From NCBI GenBank assembly GCA_049695975.1, contig JBAVTE010000012.1, positions 71,665 through 135,664 of the forward strand: a stretch of DNA of 64,000 bases, written 5' to 3'. Shown in pieces: positions 27,175 through 62,349 of this stretch (the stretch's first letter is position 1; every line of letters begins with the position of its first letter). Source of the DNA: Minisyncoccia bacterium (GTDB lineage: Bacteria; Patescibacteriota; Minisyncoccia; Phycocordibacterales; GWA1-40-21). The notes under the pieces were generated by a model. It saw only the letters and a list, made by a program, of their open reading frames with translations. It ran no database searches and was not told the DNA's origin. Position numbers and translations under genes: made by a program.

Positions 27175-27188
27175 AGGTACTTTAAAAC

Positions 27189-27215
27189 CCATGTCAAGGA
27201 CGGTCCTTGACATGG
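27189..27215. repeat. REP-like palindrome copy 1 (CCATGTCAAGGAC G GTCCTTGACATGG)
   Basis: Two perfect 13-nt arms around a single central G, lying 26 nt upstream of the Y1-transposase ORF. Confidence 0.85.
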
Positions 27216-27240: not shown

Positions 27241-27933
27241 ATGCAAAGAAATATAGTACTTTCAGTTGGTGAATATTATCATATATACAGTCGTGGAGTT
27301 GAAAAAAGAAAAATTTTTCTTAATGAAAGAGATTATGAAAGATTTACAATTTTAATTTACTTATGCAACTCTGAAAAAGTGGTACACGTAAGCGATCATA
27401 AAGAAAAAAAATTAATAGAGTTTTTTGGTTTAGAGAAGGGTAAGAATCTTGTTGATATTGGTGCGTATTGTCTTATGCCCAATCATTTTCATTTATTGCT
27501 TAAAGAAAAAATTGAGGGGGGTATTACCCTTTTTATGAAAAAGCTTCTTACTGGGTATTCAATGTATTTTAATAAAAAATATAATAGAACAGGGCCTCTT
27601 TTTGAGGGGAGATTTAAAGCAAAACATTTGAATTATGATCAATATCTTAAATACCAGTTTACATATATTCATCTTAATCCTATAGGAATTATTGATAATG
27701 GTTGGAAAAACAAAGAAATCAGTAATGTTGAAAGAGGATTGAAATTTCTACAAGATTATAAATATTCAAGTTTTTTGGATTATTCTAGGGGAGAAAGGAT
27801 AACTGGTAAAATATTAAATAAGGGTTCCTTTCCAGAATATTTTCAAAATAAAATTGAGTTTTCTGATATGGTAAAAGAATGGATGAACTTTGAAAAAGAC
27901 GATGTCAAGGACGGTCCTTGCGAAGTTGTGTGA
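27241..27933 (+). CDS. IS200/IS605-like Y1 (HUH) transposase, REP-associated tyrosine transposase (RAYT)-like
   Basis: HxH motif NHFHLLL, conserved Tyr-containing C-terminal half and a Transposase_17-like N-terminus (YHIYSRG). Flanked on both sides by the same palindrome. Confidence 0.7.
   Translation: MQRNIVLSVGEYYHIYSRGVEKRKIFLNERDYERFTILIYLCNSEKVVHVSDHKEKKLIEFFGLEKGKNLVDIGAYCLMPNHFHLLLKEKIEGGITLFMKKLLTGYSMYFNKKYNRTGPLFEGRFKAKHLNYDQYLKYQFTYIHLNPIGIIDNGWKNKEISNVERGLKFLQDYKYSSFLDYSRGERITGKILNKGSFPEYFQNKIEFSDMVKEWMNFEKDDVKDGPCEVV
27902..27920. repeat. REP-like palindrome copy 2 (19-nt core ATGTCAAGGACGGTCCTTG)
   Basis: Identical 19-mer. It lies in the convergent overlap of the transposase 3' end and the rsmA 3' end, and encodes …LRKDRP* of RsmA. 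Confidence 0.85.
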
Positions 27934-28708
27934 CTAGCCCCATCCATTTTTCTAGAGATAGGTCTTCAGCCCTAATTTTTTCTGATATTTTGCAATCAAT
28001 AAAAATCTGTTGCAGATTTTTATTTGGGAATTCTTTTTTTAGATTTCCCAAAAGCATTTTTCTTTTGCTGGAGAAACCTAGTTTTATGATTTCAAAAAAT
28101 TGTTCTTCCTCGATACTATTTTCAGTAAATAATTTTTTTGAAATATTTGAAATTTGTAAAACGGCAGAATCAACATTTGGTGAAGGTTGAAAACTTCCCC
28201 TACTCACTTTCATTATTATTTCTGGACTCCCATAGACCTTTACGCTGATAGAAAGTATGCTTTCCTTTCCATCATTTGCTACTATTCTATCAGCAATTTC
28301 TTTTTGGACCATCACAATAATTTCTGAAGGCTGGTAATCCGTTTCCAAAAACTTTCTTAAAAATTGTCCTGTTATGTAGTATGGTATGTTTGCGATGATT
28401 TTGTATTTACCAATGTCAAGGACGGTCCTTGGGGTAGATAAAATATCCCCTTCTATTAGTTCAAATTTTTTATTTTTTATTTCTTTTGAAAACTTTTCTT
28501 TTAAAATCTCTATTAAACGGTGGTCTTTTTCCACAGCAATTACCTTGCATCCTTTTTCCAGGAGTTTTTCTGTGAGGGCACCTTCCCCAGGTCCGACTTC
28601 TAGGACAATATCACTTGCAGAGATATCTCCTGTATCAGCAATTTTTTGCAAAACTCCATCGTTTTTCAAAAAATTTTGTCCCAATGATTTTTTTGCTTGT
28701 ATAGTCAT
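27905..28708 (-). CDS. rsmA: 16S rRNA (adenine1518/1519-N6)-dimethyltransferase RsmA/KsgA
   Basis: SAM-binding motif VLEVGPGEGALT and the NIPYYIT motif, at the length typical of KsgA. It contains an in-frame copy of the REP-like 19-mer at 28413-28431, encoding PRTVLDIG. Confidence 0.85.
   Translation of the reverse strand: MTIQAKKSLGQNFLKNDGVLQKIADTGDISASDIVLEVGPGEGALTEKLLEKGCKVIAVEKDHRLIEILKEKFSKEIKNKKFELIEGDILSTPRTVLDIGKYKIIANIPYYITGQFLRKFLETDYQPSEIIVMVQKEIADRIVANDGKESILSISVKVYGSPEIIMKVSRGSFQPSPNVDSAVLQISNISKKLFTENSIEEEQFFEIIKLGFSSKRKMLLGNLKKEFPNKNLQQIFIDCKISEKIRAEDLSLEKWMGLVTQLRKDRP
28413..28431. repeat. REP-like palindrome copy 3, embedded in-frame within the rsmA coding sequence
   Basis: The 19-nt ATGTCAAGGACGGTCCTTG is identical to copies 1 and 2. 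On the minus strand it translates as P-R-T-V-L-D-I-G in the variable region between the GD.L and N(L/I)PY motifs of KsgA. Confidence 0.85.
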
Positions 28709-32114: not shown

Positions 32115-32247
32115 AAAAACAAAATTTTCGTAGCAAAGTGCTTTTGAACATCCTTGGGAGTCGCGACTGGAGACGGACAGAGAAAATTTTTTGCAAAAAA
32201 TTTTCGTGATGGTCAAAAGCATTTTGTGGAGGGAGTTTTTGTTTCAG
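32115..32247 (+). repeat. MITE-like element B1 (palindrome-embedded repeat, family B)
   Basis: ~80-nt core CTTTTGAACATCCTTGGGAGTCGCGACTGGAGACGGACAGAGAAAATTTTTTGCAAAAAATTTTCGTGATGGTCAAAAG, about 90% identical to B2 and B3, set inside its own flanking inverted repeat. Lies between the convergent lysM-M23 gene and comM. Confidence 0.7.
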
Positions 32248-39394: not shown

Positions 39395-40387
39395 CTATGG
39401 ATTATTATGAAATTTTTTATGCACATCACGTAGGTGTTTGTCGGTGACGTGAGTGTAAATTTGCGTGGTGGCAATGTTGGCGTGACCGAGCATGACTTGT
39501 ACGGAGCGAATGTCTGCACCATTACTGAGGAGGTCGGTAGCAAAGCAGTGTCGGATCACGTGAGGCGTAACTTTTTTTGAAATTCCGGCAATGGTTGCAT
39601 ATCTTTTTACAATTCTTGCAATCGTTCTTTTATCAAGAAATCCATGGGGATTATTTTCATTATTTTTTTGAAATTTAGTTGAATTTTTTGTGCTCGGTGT
39701 TTGTTTTTTTGTAGGATTGACAGAAATTTGGGTAAATAGGGCATCAGACATATCATTCCTGAGGACTAAATAATCTTTTATCGATTTTTTCGCTTCATCG
39801 GAAAGAAAAACCACCCGCACTTTTCCTCCTTTCCCTCGAATGGAAAATTCATCCATTTTTAAGTCCAAATCGTTTGTAAGTGAACAAAGTTCGGAGACAC
39901 GAAGACCTGTGGAAAACAAAAGCTCCAAAATAGCCTTATCACGAGCTCGCCGTTCTGGATTTTCTTCTTGATTTGGTGCATTTAATAGTCTCTTCAATTC
40001 ATCAGGAGATATAGTATCAATTGACCGTTCATTTACTTTTGCAAGCTCGATATTATCGGCTGATAGGGAAGCGATTCCGCGACGAGTTAAAAATTTTAGA
40101 AAAATTCTGAGAGCAATTAAATAAAAATTCTGAGTTTTCTTACTCATTGTTCCGCCGGGAGTAGCGGACTCGCCCAAGAGATGATAACTTTTTGCCCCTG
40201 GCCGACGGTTTAGCCAAATGCGAAATTCCCGCACTTTTTCATTGGTAATATCTTTTGGGTCAGTAATTTTTGTTTGTTCAAAGAAAAGAGTAAGATAGCG
40301 GTCATAGTTTTCTATCGTTTTGAGCGAGCGTCCTTTTTCTATTTCAATATATTCTAGGAATTGTGTTTTGAGTTCTCTGGTGTTCAT
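39395..40387 (-). CDS. xerC: site-specific tyrosine recombinase XerC/XerD family
   Basis: C-terminal catalytic box …HVIRHCFATDLLSNGADIRSVQVMLGHANIATTQIYTHV… and an N-terminal SAM-like core-binding domain. Confidence 0.85.
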   Translation of the reverse strand: MNTRELKTQFLEYIEIEKGRSLKTIENYDRYLTLFFEQTKITDPKDITNEKVREFRIWLNRRPGAKSYHLLGESATPGGTMSKKTQNFYLIALRIFLKFLTRRGIASLSADNIELAKVNERSIDTISPDELKRLLNAPNQEENPERRARDKAILELLFSTGLRVSELCSLTNDLDLKMDEFSIRGKGGKVRVVFLSDEAKKSIKDYLVLRNDMSDALFTQISVNPTKKQTPSTKNSTKFQKNNENNPHGFLDKRTIARIVKRYATIAGISKKVTPHVIRHCFATDLLSNGADIRSVQVMLGHANIATTQIYTHVTDKHLRDVHKKFHNNP

Positions 40388-40737: not shown

Positions 40738-40880
40738 ACAATCAGCAAACTCCGCTCACAAGAGCGGATTTGTTTTTAGTGTTATAATGTAAAAGGTCGA
40801 TCTCATTAGAAACCTCGAAAATTAAAAATTTTCTATTTCTAACGGGATGAAAGTTTTTAATAATTTAATAATATTTTAAT

Positions 40881-41393
40881 ATGTCAGTTATAAAACATAA
40901 AAATCAGAGGGTCGGAATTTTCATAGATACACAGAATTTATATCATTGTGCAAAAAACCTTTACAATGGTGCAAAGGTGAATTTTGGGCAGGTAGTAAAA
41001 GACGCACTTGCGGGCAGGTCGCTTATCCGTGCAGTTGCTTATGTGATTACCACAGAATCAGGTGACGAAAAGAGTTTTTTTGATGCACTTGCTAAAGCAG
41101 GAATAGAGACAAAAACAAAAAATTTACAAATATTTGTCGGGGGTTCTAAGAAAGCCGATTGGGATGTCGGTCTTGCGGTCGACGCAATCAAACTTGCCCC
41201 AAAGTTAGACACAGTGATACTTATTTCTGGAGATGGGGACTTTGTGCCTCTTGTAGAATATCTAAAAACAAATGAAGGTTGCCAAGTAGAGCTTCTTTCT
41301 TTTGGCAAATCAACCTCAGCAAAGCTTATAGAGGCGGTAGATGATTTTATTGATCTTGGAGATAATGCGAGAAAGTATTTAATGAAATATTAG
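40881..41393 (+). CDS. NYN-domain (LabA/DUF88-like) protein
   Basis: VGIFIDTQNLYH…RAVAYV…ILISGDGDF fits the NYN/LabA fold signature. Confidence 0.7.
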   Translation: MSVIKHKNQRVGIFIDTQNLYHCAKNLYNGAKVNFGQVVKDALAGRSLIRAVAYVITTESGDEKSFFDALAKAGIETKTKNLQIFVGGSKKADWDVGLAVDAIKLAPKLDTVILISGDGDFVPLVEYLKTNEGCQVELLSFGKSTSAKLIEAVDDFIDLGDNARKYLMKY

Positions 41394-41659
41394 AAAAAAA
41401 ACAGCCCGCCTAAGGCGAGCTGTTTTTTGTATTGACTTTAATCTTTAGGCAAAATCATTGCACAAAAAATCTTAAATAAATATAGATATATTAATTCCAA
41501 AATATAGTAAACTAAACAAATTTTTAAACTTATGCTAAGATTAAAGACGAAAAATCATCAGATGATTTTTCGTCTTTAATAGTTTTATTAATATGATTTG
41601 CCTCTGAATATGCAGTTTGTCCGCTCTTTGCGGGTAATCTGAAATTTAGGGACAAATCT

Positions 41660-41791
41660 AATCCCGTTAGAGATAGATGAATTTTTTTGCAACAAAAAAA
41701 TTCATCGTAGAGAACCCACGTTCTCAATTTAACAGGATTTATCAGGTAATCAGATTAAGTGCCAATTCATAACACTTTAATCTCTAACGGG
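41660..41791 (+). promoter_or_regulatory. conserved structured 5' leader element, copy L1 (upstream of pnp)
   Basis: Begins AATCCCGTTAGAGATAG, contains two internal perfect hairpins, and ends …CAGATTAAGTGCCAATTCATAACACTTTAATCTCTAACGGG immediately before the ATG. The 5' 14 nt are the exact reverse complement of the 3' 14 nt (ATCTCTAACGGGAT), which includes the A and U of the start codon. Copies L2 and L3 are at 48302-48425 and 61153-61275. Confidence 0.6.
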
Positions 41792-43909
41792 ATGCATAAG
41801 AAAGAATTTTCGACAGAGTTTGGAGGTAGGACACTTACTGCGGAGTTTAGTGATCTCGCAGAAAACGCGCATGGTTCAGTACTTTTGAAATATGGAAACA
41901 CAATGGTTTTTGCCACGGCTGTTATTTCAAAAGAACCAAAGTTGGGGGGAGACTATCTGCCTCTCACCGTCGATTATGAAGAAAAGTTTTATGCAAGCGG
42001 TCAGATTCTTGGAAGTAGATTTATGAAAAGAGAAGGTAAACCATCGGACGAAGCTATTTTGACTGGAAGAATTGTAGATAGAACTATTCGTCCACTTTTT
42101 GATCAGTGGATTAGACACGAAATACAAGTGGTGGTCACCGTACTTTCTCTAGACACAGATGATCCAGACATACTTTCTGTTATTGCAGCATCTCTTGCGG
42201 TTTCCGTTTCCAAAATTCCATTTCATGGACCTGTCAGCGCCACAAGAGTTGGTAAACACAAACTTGATGGTTTTCAAATAAATCCGTCATATATTGAAAG
42301 AGAAAATGAAAATTATGAAATCGATCTTATTGCCTGTGGAAAAGATGGAAATATCAATATGATAGAACTTGGTGGAGATGAAGCCCAGGAGTCAGTCGTT
42401 GTGGAAGGTCTTAATCTTGCATCAATAGAAATAGAAAAAATAAATGAGTGGCAAAAGAAAATTATTTCTGAAATTGGTGAAAAAAAGATTTCACTTCCTG
42501 CTCCGGTAATGCCAGAAACTGTGTCCAAACTTTTTTCAGATAAAATTGAGCCAAAGCTCGAAAGTTTTGTAATGAGTGGAATTCCAGGCGGGTCAAAAAT
42601 AGGCGAAATAATGTCGGAGTGGATGAATCTAGCCGAGAAAAATTTTCCGGAAGATGTGCATTTTGCTGAACATTTATTTGAAGAAAAAGTAGATGCAATG
42701 ATTCATGATCAGGCATTGAAAAATAACAAGAGAGCAGATGGTAGAGGAATTGATGATTTGCGACCTCTTTTTGCACAAGCGGGTGGAGTCTCTCCAATAC
42801 TTCATGGTTCAGGAATCTTTTATAGAGGAGGAACGCACATTTTGACGACACTTACCCTCGGTGGACCAAGTGATGCACAAATAATAGATGGAATGGAAGA
42901 AAGTAATAATGCAAAAAGATTTATGCACCATTACAATTTCCCTCCATATTCAACTGGCGAGACAGGAAAAATGGGTGGAACAAATAGAAGAATGATAGGC
43001 CATGGCGCACTCGCTGAAAAAGCTCTTTTGCCAATGATTCCTTCTAATAGCGTTTTTCCTTACACAATTCGTCTAGTATCTGAAGCATTTTCTTCAAACG
43101 GTTCAACTTCAATGGGTTCTGTTTGTGGATCTACTCTTGCTCTCATGGACGGAGGTGTGCCAATCAAGAAACCGGTAGCTGGAATTGCTTCAGGATTAAT
43201 GATGGATGAAAAAGGAAATTATAAAGTTCTCACAGATATTCAAGGCCCCGAGGATCATTATGGTGATATGGATTTTAAAGTTGCGGGGACAAAAGATGGA
43301 GTTACTGCTATTCAAATGGATGTAAAAGTCAGTGGTGTTCCTGTAAATATTCTCGCCGAGGCCTTTGAAAAAGCAAAAATTGCACGACTCAAAATTCTCG
43401 ATGTGATTTTGAAAGCTATTGCTGAACCAAGAAAAGATATTTCAGCAAACGCACCAAAAATTTTAGTAATAAAAATTAAACCGGATCAGATTGGTGGAGT
43501 GATTGGTTCTGGGGGAAAAGTTATTAAAGAAATTAAAGAAAAAACTGGTGCTGATATCGATATTGAAGATGATGGCACTGTGTATTGTACCGGCAAAGAC
43601 GGTTCGGCAGAAAAGGCCAAGTTGATTATTGAAGCTATGACTCATGAATACAAGGCAGGAGAAAGATACGAGGGAATTGTAACAAAAACCACCGATTTTG
43701 GTGCTTTTGTGAAAATTGGGATGGGTGATACAGAAGGCCTTGTACATGTTTCAGAAATTGCACCTTTTAGAGTAGATAATGTCAGCACGATTTTGAAAGA
43801 AGGAGACAAAGTACCAGTCGTTGTAAAAGGTATAGATGAAAGAGGACGTATTAGTCTTTCTATTAAACTAGCTGATTCAGAATGGGCACAAAAGAAGTTG
43901 GGAAAATAA
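41792..43909 (+). CDS. pnp: polynucleotide phosphorylase
   Basis: Two RNase PH domains, KH and S1 domains at the C-terminus. The ORF-track start (GTG at 41759, giving MPIHNTLISNGM) lies inside the shared leader. The start is more likely the ATG at 41792 (MHKKEFSTEF…). Confidence 0.9.
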   Translation: MHKKEFSTEFGGRTLTAEFSDLAENAHGSVLLKYGNTMVFATAVISKEPKLGGDYLPLTVDYEEKFYASGQILGSRFMKREGKPSDEAILTGRIVDRTIRPLFDQWIRHEIQVVVTVLSLDTDDPDILSVIAASLAVSVSKIPFHGPVSATRVGKHKLDGFQINPSYIERENENYEIDLIACGKDGNINMIELGGDEAQESVVVEGLNLASIEIEKINEWQKKIISEIGEKKISLPAPVMPETVSKLFSDKIEPKLESFVMSGIPGGSKIGEIMSEWMNLAEKNFPEDVHFAEHLFEEKVDAMIHDQALKNNKRADGRGIDDLRPLFAQAGGVSPILHGSGIFYRGGTHILTTLTLGGPSDAQIIDGMEESNNAKRFMHHYNFPPYSTGETGKMGGTNRRMIGHGALAEKALLPMIPSNSVFPYTIRLVSEAFSSNGSTSMGSVCGSTLALMDGGVPIKKPVAGIASGLMMDEKGNYKVLTDIQGPEDHYGDMDFKVAGTKDGVTAIQMDVKVSGVPVNILAEAFEKAKIARLKILDVILKAIAEPRKDISANAPKILVIKIKPDQIGGVIGSGGKVIKEIKEKTGADIDIEDDGTVYCTGKDGSAEKAKLIIEAMTHEYKAGERYEGIVTKTTDFGAFVKIGMGDTEGLVHVSEIAPFRVDNVSTILKEGDKVPVVVKGIDERGRISLSIKLADSEWAQKKLGK

Positions 43910-48028: not shown

Positions 48029-48301
48029 CTATCGAACTGCCTCTTTCAAGGCCTTTGCTGCTCTAAATTTTGGAACTTTCATAGCTGGAACGGAGATTGA
48101 TTCTCCTGTTCTTGGGTTTCTGGCTTGTCTGGCGGCTCTCTGTTTGACAGAGAAGATACCGAGACCTGCAATAGAAACATCTTCGCCTTTCTTTAAACCA
48201 CCGACAATTGTATCAATAACTATATCCACGACTTGCTCTGACTGAACTTTTGTTCCATTAAGCAATTTATTTACTGCCTCTGCAATTGATTGTTTATTCA
48301 T
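48029..48301 (-). CDS. hup: DNA-binding protein HU
   Basis: MNKQSIAEAVNKLLNGTKVQSEQVV…RNPRTGESISVPAMKVPKFRAAKALKEAV is a typical 90-aa HU. The ORF-track start (48334, MPIHNTLISNGM…) lies inside the shared leader copy L2. Confidence 0.85.
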   Translation of the reverse strand: MNKQSIAEAVNKLLNGTKVQSEQVVDIVIDTIVGGLKKGEDVSIAGLGIFSVKQRAARQARNPRTGESISVPAMKVPKFRAAKALKEAVR

Positions 48302-48425: not shown

Positions 48426-48730
48426 CATACTATTAAATAACTTACTATAATCGACCATTTTATAATCTTCAAAAAAATATTTTTGAAGACAACTGACCTA
48501 GAAGTATTATATTACAAGGGTATTTTGGTGCAATAGGGGAAGTTTATAACCTGTTTATTGTCTGAGTGTTGTAAAATAAGGGTATTTTCGACATTGAAAA
48601 TATGGCTTAAAATAAGGATATATTTAATCTCAAATAAAGGTATTGATTAATATAATTAGACGTGTAATAGTTTGGGTATGAAAAACCGACAGTTTCGTCT
48701 GGCGAAACTGTCGGTTTTCTTTCTTTTTTA

Positions 48731-51192: not shown

Positions 51193-51333
51193 AAAAAAGA
51201 CCGAGAAAACTTATAACAAAACGCTTTTGTCCGTCACGAAAATTTTTTACTAAAAATCTTCTCTGTCCGTCGCCAGTCGCAACTTCCAAGGACGTTCGAA
51301 AGCGTTTTGTTATAAGTTTTCTCGGTCTTTTTT
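51193..51333 (-). repeat. MITE-like element B3 (family B core in reverse orientation inside a 33-bp perfect inverted repeat)
   Basis: Flanking AAAAGACCGAGAAAACTTATAACAAAACGCTTT…AAAGCGTTTTGTTATAAGTTTTCTCGGTCTTTT. The reverse-complemented core matches B1 and B2 (TTCGAACGTCCTTGGAAGTTGCGACTGGCGACGGACAGAGAAGATTTTTAG…). Lies between convergent thrH and clpP. Confidence 0.7.
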
Positions 51334-54486: not shown

Positions 54487-54796
54487 TATCTCTTTCGACT
54501 TTTTTCTCGTCGTCACTCGAAAAAGTCTGGGTACCAGCTCGTCTATTTTTCTTGCTAGAAAAATATGATTCCGCTGTTCGATTCCTACACGCAAGCAAAG
54601 CAGTTTGCTTGCTTTCGGGCCCAAATAGAAAAAGACGCCGAAGCGTCTCTTTTTAAATTTGTGAACCACGACTTTTGCCTTTCGTGAACTCAAGGCAAAG
54701 TCGCAGTCCCCGCCTCCTTCGCTTTGCTCAGTCCGGCCGGCACATTGCAAAAGAAAATCGCCTTTGGATCATTGGCGATTTTCATATATTTGCAAT

Positions 54797-54812
54797 GTGC
54801 CCTCAGTAGGAA
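54797..54812. repeat. copy of tRNA-Lys 3'-end segment, second of three
   Basis: Exact repeat of the 16-mer GTGCCCTCAGTAGGAA. Confidence 0.8.
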
Positions 54813-54832
54813 ATCTTCCATTACATGGACGG

Positions 54833-54896
54833 TACACCTTTTCTGTTTTCTGTTCGTGAAGACACTCCAGAAAACTATCAAAGGTCTTCGATTCCT
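54833..54896. repeat. 64-nt sequence shared with the tRNA-Arg locus (59447-59510)
   Basis: TACACCTTTTCTGTTTTCTGTTCGTGAAGACACTCCAGAAAACTATCAAAGGTCTTCGATTCCT is identical at both loci. It contains a GAAGAC…GTCTTC hairpin and a T-arm-like TTCGATTCC. Confidence 0.85.
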
Positions 54897-54949
54897 AACG
54901 CAAGGTCTCCCAGACCTTGCTCTGAGGGCACTCTTCATTTCATTCATCG

Positions 54950-55022
54950 TGCCCTCAGTAGGAATCGAACCTACGACCAATTGCTTAAAAGGCAACTGCT
55001 CTACCAACTGAGCTATGAGGGC
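54950..55022 (-). tRNA. tRNA-Lys (anticodon TTT)
   Basis: The reverse complement gives acceptor GCCCTCA/TGAGGGC, anticodon stem GTTGC/GCAAT with loop CTTTTAA, and T-arm GTAGG-TTCGATT-CCTAC. Confidence 0.8.
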
Positions 55023-58251: not shown

Positions 58252-58384
58252 AAAAAACAAAAACCTCGTAACAAAGTACTTTTGAACGTCCTTGGAAGTC
58301 GCGACTGGCGACGGACAGAGAAAATTTTTAGCAAAAAATTTTCGTGATGGTCAAAAGTATTTTATGGAGAGGTTTTTGTTTTTT
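58252..58384 (+). repeat. MITE-like element B2 (family B)
   Basis: Core CTTTTGAACGTCCTTGGAAGTCGCGACTGGCGACGGACAGAGAAAATTTTTAGCAAAAAATTTTCGTGATGGTCAAAAG inside the inverted repeat AAAAAACAAAAACCTC…GAGGTTTTTGTTTTTT. Lies between convergent mutM and ruvA. Confidence 0.7.
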
Positions 58385-59389: not shown

Positions 59390-59422
59390 GAGAGCTCTTT
59401 TTATAATTGTCCCCCCGCCAGG
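59390..59422. repeat. direct repeat of tRNA-Arg 3' end plus 3' flank (33 nt), 143 nt from the tRNA-proximal copy
   Basis: AGAGCTCTTTTTATAATTGTCCCCCCGCCAGGA occurs at 59390-59422 and again at 59566-59598, the latter overlapping the tRNA 3' end. Confidence 0.85.
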
Positions 59423-59446
59423 ATATCTCTCCCTACGGGAGCTGTA

Positions 59447-59510
59447 CACCTTTTCTGTTTTCTGTTCGTGAAGACACTCCAGAAAACTATCAAAGGTCTT
59501 CGATTCCTGG
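59447..59510. repeat. 64-nt sequence shared with the tRNA-Lys locus (54833-54896)
   Basis: Identical 64-mer; see 54833-54896. Confidence 0.85.
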
Positions 59511-59583
59511 ACGAAACTGCTACCCAGCAGTTTCTCGGTGGGACAAAATAAAAAGGCTCTTGGAAGAGCTCTTTTTATAATTG

Positions 59584-59655
59584 TCCCCCCGCCAGGAATC
59601 GAACCTGGATTTCTTCCTTCGCAGGGAAGTGTCCTATCCATTGAACGACGAGGGG
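59584..59655 (-). tRNA. tRNA-Arg (anticodon reads GCG by hand)
   Basis: The reverse complement gives acceptor CCCCTCG/CGGGGGG with one G-U pair, D-stem GTTC/GGAC, anticodon stem CTTCC/GGAAG with loop CTGCGAA, and T-arm CCAGG-TTCGATT-CCTGG. Confidence 0.65.
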
Positions 59656-61138: not shown

Positions 61139-61152
61139 GATAGGTTTTATGG

Positions 61153-61275
61153 ATCCCTTTAGAGATAGAAACAATCAGATTGATTACGTAAAATTAATCA
61201 AATAATAAAATTTAATAACAATAATTTAATAAATAGATTAAGGTGGTAATTCATAACACATTAATCTCTAACGGG
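61153..61275 (+). promoter_or_regulatory. conserved structured 5' leader element, copy L3 (upstream of capA-like gene)
   Basis: ATCCCTTTAGAGATAG…AAACAATCAGATTG…TAGATTAAGGTGGTAATTCATAACACATTAATCTCTAACGGG-ATG. The 3' 30 nt are nearly identical to L1 and L2, and the 5' end has one mismatch. Confidence 0.55.
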
Positions 61276-62349
61276 ATGGAAAAAGGTTTTTTAAAAAAAT
61301 TATCGGCAATGATTTTGGAGGGTTTTGTCCTCGCGTTTTTTATTTTTGCTTTTGTACAAATGCCGTCTGAATTATTGTCTATTTGGCAAAATTTAAAAGA
61401 TAGAAAATTGAGTATAGAAGAAATAAATATATTAAATAAAAATATTTCTTCTGTTATTGAGTCTCGGAACTTTGCCGAAATAACAAAATCCAATGAAACC
61501 ACCTTGGCTTTTGTCGGGGATATAATGCTTGATAGAGGTGTCTATTCTAAATTTATAAAAAATGGTAATGGTGATTATTATTTTCCCTTTGCAAAAATAA
61601 AAGATGATTTGGCTAAGTATGATCTAGTCTTTGGAAATCTTGAAGGGCCTATGTCAGACAAGGGGCAAGATTCGCACAACCTGTATTCTTTTGAGATGGA
61701 TCCAAATTTTGCACCAGTATTGCGAGATATTGGTTTCAAGGTTTTGTCTATTGCAAATAACCACATAGATAATTGGGGAAAAATAGCGATGGAGGATACT
61801 TTTTCTAGACTAAAAGAAAATAGAATAATTGTTTCAGGCGGAGGAATGAATGAAAGCGAAGCGTATGGTGTAAATGTCATAAATGTTGATGGAAATAAAA
61901 TTGCGATTTTATCTTTTAGTCAGTTTGGCGCAGGACAATATAGTGCGACAGCAAGCTCTTCTGGAATTGCTATCCTAGATCAGAAAAAAGTTGAAGAAAG
62001 TGTAAAAATGGCTAGAAACATGGCTGATATTGTGGTGGTGTCGTTTCACTTTGGGGAAGAATACAAAAATATACCTAACGATTTTCAGAAAAAATGGGCG
62101 AAGATTGTAGTGGATGTGGGTGCGGATCTCGTCGTTGGCGGACATCCTCATGTGGTGGAGCCAGTAGAACAATACAGGAATGTTTTTATTGCGTATAGTT
62201 TAGGAAATTTTGTTTTCGATCAGTATTTTTCTCCAGAAACAATGTCGGGAGGTCTTCTTGAAGTAAAAATAAAAGATAAAAAAATTATTTCAGTAAATTT
62301 AAGAAAAATCCAGATGAATAGCGAATATCAGCCGGAACTTGTGGAATAG
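61276..62349 (+). CDS. capA: CapA/PgsA-family (PGA_cap) metallophosphatase-like protein
   Basis: …LAFVGDIMLDRG…NLEGP…ANNH…GGHPH…SLGNFVFDQ… The likely start is MEKGFLKK…, after the leader; the ORF-track start is at 61243. Confidence 0.7.
   Translation: MEKGFLKKLSAMILEGFVLAFFIFAFVQMPSELLSIWQNLKDRKLSIEEINILNKNISSVIESRNFAEITKSNETTLAFVGDIMLDRGVYSKFIKNGNGDYYFPFAKIKDDLAKYDLVFGNLEGPMSDKGQDSHNLYSFEMDPNFAPVLRDIGFKVLSIANNHIDNWGKIAMEDTFSRLKENRIIVSGGGMNESEAYGVNVINVDGNKIAILSFSQFGAGQYSATASSSGIAILDQKKVEESVKMARNMADIVVVSFHFGEEYKNIPNDFQKKWAKIVVDVGADLVVGGHPHVVEPVEQYRNVFIAYSLGNFVFDQYFSPETMSGGLLEVKIKDKKIISVNLRKIQMNSEYQPELVE

Follow-up and report, generated by a model that had tools for sequence, protein, structure and literature searches.

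In the 64,000-nt window analyzed here (positions 71,665 to 135,664 of contig JBAVTE010000012.1, Minisyncoccia bacterium assembly GCA_049695975.1), a discrete cassette of about 125 nt with inverted-repeat ends directly precedes three genes, pnp, hup and a capA-like gene with a PGA_cap domain. We put the probability at roughly 0.85 that this cassette is a non-autonomous, MITE-like transposable element (MITE, miniature inverted-repeat transposable element), and not a gene-specific regulatory leader. The element is an insertion with target duplication, is mobile, is biased toward start codons and is widely distributed. An earlier note on this DNA had interpreted the three copies as a cis-regulatory RNA leader; the discrete cassette with a helix that buries the AUG was borne out, but the tie to particular genes was not.

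Insertion at start codons

Each window copy ends ...ATCTCTAACGGGA, and its final A is the A of an ATG (Table 1). As the earlier note had reported, the three copies (L1, L2 and L3) stand before genes whose products are, by domain, PNPase, HU and PGA_cap/CapA-like, and L1 and L2 are identical at both ends (the first 17 and the last 44 nt); the NYN gene was confirmed as well. It had also recognized that the mechanical open reading frame (ORF) calls of all three genes extend through the leader. These calls begin at a GTG 11 codons upstream, and the spurious N-terminal peptide is MPIHNTLISNGM for L1 and L2 and, as read from the sequence, MVIHNTLISNGM for L3. L3 is located 15 nt past the tpiA stop codon. 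Allowing up to 3 mismatches, the window holds 7 matches to the 15-mer ATCTCTAACGGGATG, in both arms of the three copies and in a fourth copy, compared to 1.29 expected from shuffles (0 of 100 reach 7); a profile built from about 100 copies found no further copies in the window. The fourth copy, previously described as degenerate, at 40836-40857 and ahead of the NYN gene, is instead a complete mini-element, two arms (TCTCATTAGAAAC pairing with ATTTCTAACGGGA) around a 21-nt loop, directly 3' of the −10-like box TGTTATAAT. It folds at −11.9 kcal/mol (z = −3.0) and is kept at the same place in the relative loci L123-L125 (three-digit L numbers denote loci outside the window). Its junction ATG (40847) opens an ORF of only 10 codons and is not the start of the NYN ORF, which lies 34 nt further, at 40881.

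What had been missed is that a second copy of the start codon, together with two following bases, stands before L2 (ATGAA, 48428-48424) and before L3 (ATGGA, 61149-61153); L1, unlike these two, has no upstream ATG copy. A search for more copies in related genomes of the candidate phyla radiation (CPR), which the earlier note had suggested, shows this arrangement in many copies. The scan required both arms, did not demand an ATG and covered one genome per GTDB species; it matched at least 118 stretches in at least 89 assemblies, nearly all of Paceibacteria lineages. Among the matches listed are Lloyd-, Wolfe-, Kaiser-, Yanofsky-, Nomura-, Zambryski-, Taylor-, Jorgensen-, Lipton- and Sungiibacteria; one of the assemblies is a single-cell genome, and several have more than one copy. 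In 102 of 119 complete copies, exactly one end reads A followed by TG and opens an ORF of at least 60 aa; of the other 17, several involve a short ORF, a contig end or a tandem copy. The flanks on the gene strand read (A/G)TGRA, element, TGRA, with a perfect 4-nt direct repeat in 65 of the 102 copies (TGAA in 44, TGGA in 15, TGAG in 3, TGTA in 2 and TGCG in 1). The base before the upstream repeat is A in 63 of these 65 and G in the other 2, and because of the two GTG cases the A of the new ATG must be the element's own.

Empty sites were found in close relatives. At hup, the site is empty in L123-L126 (HU 94% identical), where it reads ...tttaaatATGAATAAACAATCAATTGCAGAGG with a single ATGAA (L124), compared to ...taatagtATGAA-element-TGAATAAACAATCAATTGCAGAGG in the window; the exact 27-mer of the empty site had no match in metagenome contigs, and the empty sites came via protein homologues. 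The pnp site is empty in L120, L121 and L123, and the element is not at the pnp of L010 either, so that the proposal of a leader like the one through which pnp autoregulates does not hold. In L124 and L125, pnp is filled by a copy 92% identical to the hup copy of the window; L120 (pnp empty) and L124 (pnp filled) come from the same sample. Likewise, L113 has a filled topA site where that of L090 is empty. At the empty orthologous sites the target sequence stands only once. Taken together, the target duplications and the empty sites indicate insertion. The earlier suggestion of spread as a mobile cassette was thus essentially right as to mobility, and its alternative, gene conversion, is not needed to account for the near-identity of copies.

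Arrangements of several copies show that the regenerated target is struck repeatedly. At L003 5898-6279, three tandem elements are separated only by TGAA, the middle one with the variant arms TCCCGTAGTAG/CACTACGGGA; at L099 3017-3417, two copies adjoin, the second with an insert of about 160 nt in its hairpin loop; nested copies, and relic arms beside intact copies, also occur. Copies also decay. At hup in L127-129 only ...gcataacactttaatTTCAAATAAGatg is left, and the proteins are annotated MHNTLISNKM.... At RNHCP in L124 (13349-13506) and also in L125, a degenerate copy has lost its junction ATG, and the L124 gene call starts within the element, with 26 additional N-terminal residues (126 vs. 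100 aa); here the insertion is absorbed as coding sequence.

Two further features of the pnp locus were noted. A segment, gtccgctctttgcgggtaatctgaaattt, is conserved upstream of pnp with or without the element (41626-41656 in the window, about 7445-7485 in L120, and in L123), and is probably the native pnp promoter or a leader hairpin. In L122 (9880-10000; PNPase 82% identical), another palindromic insert of about 80 nt, ctggattccagc...gctggaatgacag, fills the space that separates the ATG from the conserved region upstream of pnp, so that sites of this kind may serve other hairpin elements too.

The genes that carry the element have little in common: the 102 downstream proteins comprise 161 Pfam families, none of which is found in more than 3. 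The second codon is biased: R occupies +3 in 93% of the copies and A occupies +4 in 86%, which exceeds the background, in which 42% of the window genes start with ATGRA. Of the ATGRA sites in the window, 26 are at gene starts, as many as 51 at other non-genic positions and 368 within genes. By tolerance alone, at most about half of the insertions that survive would be expected at start codons; the share observed is 86-90% (binomial p = 1 × 10−31 or 3 × 10−16, depending on the null).

Three carrier contigs are labelled as lying outside CPR, including Ignavibacteria and Omnitrophota (L030 2958-3080, L103 1760-1887 and L110 1447-1580), and represent either mis-binning or real transfer. The L030 copy has the ATGAA duplication at the start of an ORF beginning MKNIVLLGSTGSIG, which we take to resemble Dxr; the L103 and L110 copies are not on start codons. 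The ORFs around these three copies, considered by position alone and without Pfam, included nothing suggestive of a transposase. No copies were found in viral contigs.

Anatomy, orientation and transcription

The 119 copies share a perfect 13-bp terminal inverted repeat, TCCCGTTAGAGAT ... ATCTCTAACGGGA. In the arms, the outer 10 bp are constant and the inner 3 bp vary solely as matched pairs; in copies with looser arms, both arms are again altered together (AGAGAC/GTCTCT, AGAAGT/ACTTCT, AGAGGC/GCCTCT and AGAAAT/ATTTCT). The interior is asymmetric. One end, the hairpin end, reads AG, then a perfect hairpin of copy-specific sequence, then GTA, with a T-rich tract after the hairpin in most copies; the middle is AT-rich; and at the other, distal end an ATAAC-N6 motif adjoins the arm. 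The element measures 100-133 bp (length modulo 3 splits 46:28:28) and is without coding capacity; of two longer copies, one has 192 bp and one has 277 bp with an insert in the hairpin loop.

The terminal helix of 14 bp, into which the AUG is drawn with its A and U, a central claim of the earlier note, is present in the minimum-energy folds of L1, L2 and L3 (−46.8, −38.5 and −25.0 kcal/mol; z-scores −9.3, −6.3 and −4.7), with one mismatch in L3 (G to T in the 5' arm). For the covariation check that it had proposed, 11 copies were aligned in gene sense: of the 7 hairpin pairs, 6 are altered on both sides, and the covariation score is 0.242 vs. 0.089 in shuffles (none of 500 as high) and no more than 0.075 for slid partners. 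The terminal helix shows no variation in this set, which the search pattern had selected. The hairpin stems are 97.5% Watson-Crick (551 Watson-Crick pairs, 5 G-U and 9 A-C), and the G-U vs. A-C asymmetry, showing no strand bias, cannot tell which hairpin strand acts as RNA. The first hairpin of L1 is wholly unlike that of L2 and of the L124 copy in sequence and still forms a perfect stem. Such differing yet perfect stems fit the maintenance of palindromes at the DNA level, by templated correction of quasi-palindromes, at least as well as selection on RNA; a DNA palindrome accounts for the hairpin covariation equally well.

The two orientations are far from equally frequent. The hairpin end is gene-proximal in about 90 copies and the distal end in about 12 (p = 6 × 10−16). 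At typA, the element lies in opposite orientations in L002 and L021. No specific RNA leader could function when read as its reverse complement; the palindromic stem alone is present in either orientation. The number of T in the 12 nt after the hairpin averages 5.2 where the hairpin is antisense to the gene vs. 2.1 where it is sense (p = 1 × 10−6), independent of GC content. A sense-strand hairpin thus survives only without the T-tract. Hairpin and T-tract together would accordingly terminate transcription in one direction only, and the orientation bias would be explained by selection against terminators on the sense strand. L1, L2 and L3 are all of the rare orientation, with the distal end gene-proximal, and lack the T-tract. 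Such selection implies that transcription enters from upstream, so that the element is probably transcribed as a 5' leader, as the earlier note had assumed; the lack of a conserved internal promoter (see below) points the same way.

In the window, a Shine-Dalgarno-like motif precedes 6 of the 61 genes compared to 4.1 in shuffles, and 34 of the 61 have a −10-like TAnnnT whose end is 5-9 nt ahead of the ATG, compared to 14.9 (maximum 22), these boxes being of the TGnTATAAT type. This suggests a largely leaderless transcriptome without Shine-Dalgarno signal. Of 75 elements, 31 likewise have a −10-like box at this distance (5-9 nt) ahead of their upstream ATG copy (14.3 in shuffles). The hup gene is not leaderless: its conserved upstream region holds a TATAAT box and a leader hairpin. 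A conserved upstream ORF, or coupled termination at the TAA of the 3' arm, was considered and rejected. ORFs from the upstream ATG stop at variable places, no more than 15 of 75 of them at the TAA in question.

Table 1 The element and associated features in the window (window coordinates; minus-strand features 5' to 3' or as an interval).
Feature	Position	Strand	Remark
Copy L1	41662-41792	+	131 bp, at pnp start
L1 arms	41662-41674 and 41780-41792	+	
L1 hairpins	41676-41706 and 41710-41725	+	
L1 last base	41792	+	A of pnp ATG (41792-41794)
Copy L2	48301-48423	−	123 bp, at hup start
L2 arms	48423-48411 and 48313-48301	−	
L2 hairpins	48409-48389 and 48385-48370	−	
L2 last base	48301	−	A of hup ATG (48301-48299)
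Upstream target copy at hup, ATGAA	48424-48428	−	original hup start codon + 2 nt
Downstream target copy at hup	A at 48301, TGAA at 48300-48297	−	
Promoter-like site TTGAAG-17-TATAGT	48444-48472	−	shortly before hup's upstream ATGAA copy
TATAAT box	48511-48506	−	about 80 nt upstream of the upstream ATGAA; stretch conserved with relatives
Copy L3	61154-61276	+	123 bp, at PGA_cap (CapA-like) gene start
L3 arms	61154-61166 and 61264-61276	+	single G-to-T change in the first
L3 last base	61276	+	A of PGA_cap gene ATG
Upstream target copy at L3, ATGGA	61149-61153	+	
Downstream target copy at L3	A at 61276, TGGA at 61277-61280	+	
Mini-element (fourth copy)	40801-40847	+	two arms + 21-nt loop, between rpsO and NYN gene
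Mini-element arms	40801-40813 and 40835-40847	+	TCTCATTAGAAAC and ATTTCTAACGGGA
Element end pair			TCCCGTTAGA...TCTAACGGGA

Proposed mechanism and alternative explanations

The following sequence of events would account for these observations. The element inserts between the A and the TGRA of an ATGRA, giving the 4-bp TGRA duplication; because it ends in A, it rebuilds ATG-RA downstream and leaves the ORF at the struck start codon intact, and the old ATG is left behind upstream. The gene's own upstream promoter would then transcribe the element as a new 5' leader, and copies acting as sense-strand terminators would be removed by selection or lose their T-tract. In the RNA, the arms would be expected to pair and bury the AUG. 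More speculatively, RNase III or another double-strand nuclease might cut the stem, giving an mRNA with a short leader, or, alternatively, ribosomes starting at the retained upstream AUG might unwind the 5' arm. Whatever neutralizes one copy copes with several in series, as the three tandem elements before one gene imply. We tentatively consider that the element could be viewed as a 5'-end "intron", homing to start codons (which would be transcription starts if the genes are leaderless) and neutralized in RNA by cleavage or opening of its 13-14-bp stem, either of which would again give an mRNA with its AUG at or close to a free 5' end, although we hold this to be rather doubtful.

The element has every testable hallmark of a MITE save an identified autonomous partner, and several points weigh against its interpretation as a transposable element. 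Arm pairs more than 300 bp apart, as expected of an autonomous partner, were found neither in about 1 Mb of loci nor in viral contigs. The search pattern demanded near-exact arms, so that the perfect conservation of the arms is partly built in. The matched changes in the arms and the hairpin covariation would also fit selection for RNA structure. The preference for start codons exceeds what the ATGRA motif and avoidance of coding sequence provide; it is real, and positive selection for a host function may play a part. Finally, essential genes carry the element (topA, pheT, murG and typA), so that some way of exposing the AUG must exist.

One alternative is that the element is a cis-regulatory RNA leader selected by the host, a translational switch or an RNase III stalk that forms a genome-wide post-transcriptional regulon of many genes, with mobility only in its ancient origin. 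This would agree with the very stable AUG-including helix in every copy, the covarying hairpin and paired arm changes, a start-codon excess beyond simple tolerance and the apparent co-transcription of the element, and CPR bacteria are reported to keep RNase III, RNase J and PNPase (PMC12641178). We nevertheless consider it unlikely. The element occurs in both orientations, which leaves only the palindromic stem common to all RNAs; its gene set lacks functional coherence, and the same genes do without it in close relatives. Copies decay while the gene stays (hup in L127-129, RNHCP in L124, the arm mismatch of L3), and the predominance of Watson-Crick pairs in the stems, with scarce G-U and no strand asymmetry, is more like a DNA palindrome. 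Rfam 15 has no match to it: gathering thresholds gave tRNAs only, and relaxing E to 10 added nothing but chance hits to snoRNAs and miRNAs, far below threshold.

A portable expression cassette, bringing an outward promoter and a start codon so that transcription begins inside the element or at its final A and yields a leaderless mRNA, appears highly unlikely to us. These genomes look leaderless, with a −10 box 6-8 nt before the ATG, and the arm at the hairpin end supplies TATCTC-N7-ATG; the key T at −7 is, however, missing from TATCTC. At the distal end, TAATCT-N8-ATG is enriched, though weakly, where that end faces the gene, in 7 of 12 ends vs. 13 of 90 facing away (p = 0.002; 0.016 with independent copies only). 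A precedent exists in the REP2 and Borrelia repeats, which carry promoter, ribosome-binding site (RBS) and ATG (PMC3184786). A consensus scan, however, found no gene-directed sigma-70-like promoter in the gene-proximal part of L1, L2 or L3, and no −10 hexamer at a fixed position was found across the 90 majority copies (the best position reaches 13 of 90). Selection against sense terminators, moreover, is only sensible if read-through from upstream matters.

An invertible switch or tyrosine-recombinase cassette, in which the 13-bp repeats would be recombinase sites and ATGRA the crossover core, is the most improbable of the alternatives weighed. Joined in a circle, the inverted arms around a short spacer would resemble a recombinase core, both orientations exist (as at typA in L002 vs. 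L021), and a XerC/D-like integrase is encoded in the window (39395-40387). That integrase, however, is syntenic beside rpsO in relatives with or without elements; close relatives did not show the two orientations at any one locus (at pnp, the copies of the window, L124 and L125 point the same way); no conserved internal promoter to switch was found; and the duplicated bases vary by copy, matching the local gene. Three further candidates were rejected: an integron attC-like site (the order GTTAGAG...CTCTAAC is the reverse of the R''/R' order of attC), an IS200/IS605-type element (the flanking repeat varies with the target and is thus a true duplication) and a RAYT-mobilized REP/REPIN (such palindromes are GC-rich, 20-40 nt long, without target duplication and extragenic, mostly 3' of genes, whereas the element duplicates its target and stands on the start codon at the 5' end).

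Implications, other repeats and known systems

Insertion at start codons offers a transposon a low-cost residence in very compact genomes. To our knowledge, no other bacterial MITE family has the start codon as its preferred target and a terminal base that rebuilds it, and full-text searches on Parcubacteria/Patescibacteria that looked for such an element found it nowhere described. A recurrent annotation error in CPR genomes, spurious N-termini such as MPIHNTLISNGM or MHNTLISNKM, is accounted for. The element also breaks contigs at start codons: the break in L001, an identical assembly of the pnp locus, falls within the element, 27 nt upstream of the pnp ATG. Filled and empty alleles in one sample make it usable as a strain marker, and about 100 natural constructs with a 13-bp stem on the AUG of essential genes, in hosts that lack Shine-Dalgarno sites and have many leaderless genes, provide a test bed for start-codon finding and for the role of RNase III in CPR. 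If the proposed neutralization in RNA is true, dozens of housekeeping genes per genome would share one processing-dependent step. A transposon would then have built a post-transcriptional regulon across the whole genome, in bacteria whose genomes are among the smallest.

Other repeats were observed in the window. The stretches 54780-54948 and 59391-59582 share a core of about 100 nt (85% identical) beside tRNA-Lys (54949-55022, minus strand) and tRNA-Arg (59583-59655, minus strand), in each case bracketed by a direct duplicate of the adjoining tRNA's 3' end (among them an exact repeat of 33 nt, 59391-59423 = 59565-59597). This has the look of a second family of miniature insertions, which targets and regenerates tRNA 3' ends. 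A 130-nt imperfect palindrome around GAAAATTTTTTGCAAAAAATTTTC, at 32115-32244 and 58253-58382 (88% identical) with a partial third copy at about 51238-51261, may be another MITE-like or terminator-like repeat. The GC-rich palindrome ATGTCAAGGACGGTCCTTG occurs three times within 1.3 kb (27184-27209, 27895-27920 and 28406-28431). According to gene tables, relatives of the window carry a diversity-generating retroelement (Lcl_C target, bAvd and RVT_1) beside rpsO, and in one relative strain the XerC/D-like integrase contains an intein with a LAGLIDADG domain (769 aa).

Comparison with known systems places the element among the MITEs with features of its own. The E. coli pnp leader likewise has a stable stem in the 5' leader of pnp, downstream of rpsO; the element, in contrast, is an insertion, is not at pnp in close relatives, stands at about a hundred unrelated genes and has no PNPase-specific feature. 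In the gap of T4 gene 60 and in the mitochondrial "byps" of Magnusiomyces, hairpin inserts lie between identical take-off and landing codons, and here ATG-RA similarly flanks a stem on both sides; unlike in those bypass elements, the downstream AUG can initiate, so that bypassing is not needed, and the upstream ORF is not conserved.

The transposon piggyBac has 13-bp repeats, CCCTAGAAAGATA, beginning with CCC, a 4-bp duplication (TTAA) and precise excision. Its repeat matches the element's CCCGTTAGAGATA at 9 of 13 positions. IS1380 is a prokaryotic relative of piggyBac (PMC10813416). The element is reminiscent of piggyBac in its repeats of 13 bp that start with (T)CCC, its duplication of 4 bp and its clean empty sites, but its target is TGRA in ATGRA and not TTAA. 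No transposase was found in the loci scanned, and an IS1380/piggyBac-like enzyme for the element is only a lead.

The REP2 repeats of Neisseria and the inverted repeats of Borrelia plasmids are cassettes upstream of unrelated genes, with an ATG and two stem-loops (PMC3184786). They bring a promoter and RBS, whereas neither was found conserved in the element, and they are not described as having terminal inverted repeats and duplications, whereas here the empty sites demonstrate insertion. The Correia elements (CREE) of Neisseria, the enterobacterial ERIC and the pneumococcal RUP sequences, bacterial MITEs that form RNA or DNA hairpins beside genes, are like the element in having 100-160 bp, terminal inverted repeats, a short duplication and no ORF. 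Correia stems in transcripts are substrates of RNase III. MITEs of these types are dispersed, often 5' of genes, co-transcribed and present or absent by strain (PMC3184786). They duplicate TA at varied intergenic sites, whereas the element duplicates TGRA, occupies a start codon in about 86-90% of cases and supplies the A of the ATG; and unlike them it resides in hosts without Shine-Dalgarno sites and ranges across a class-level radiation within CPR.

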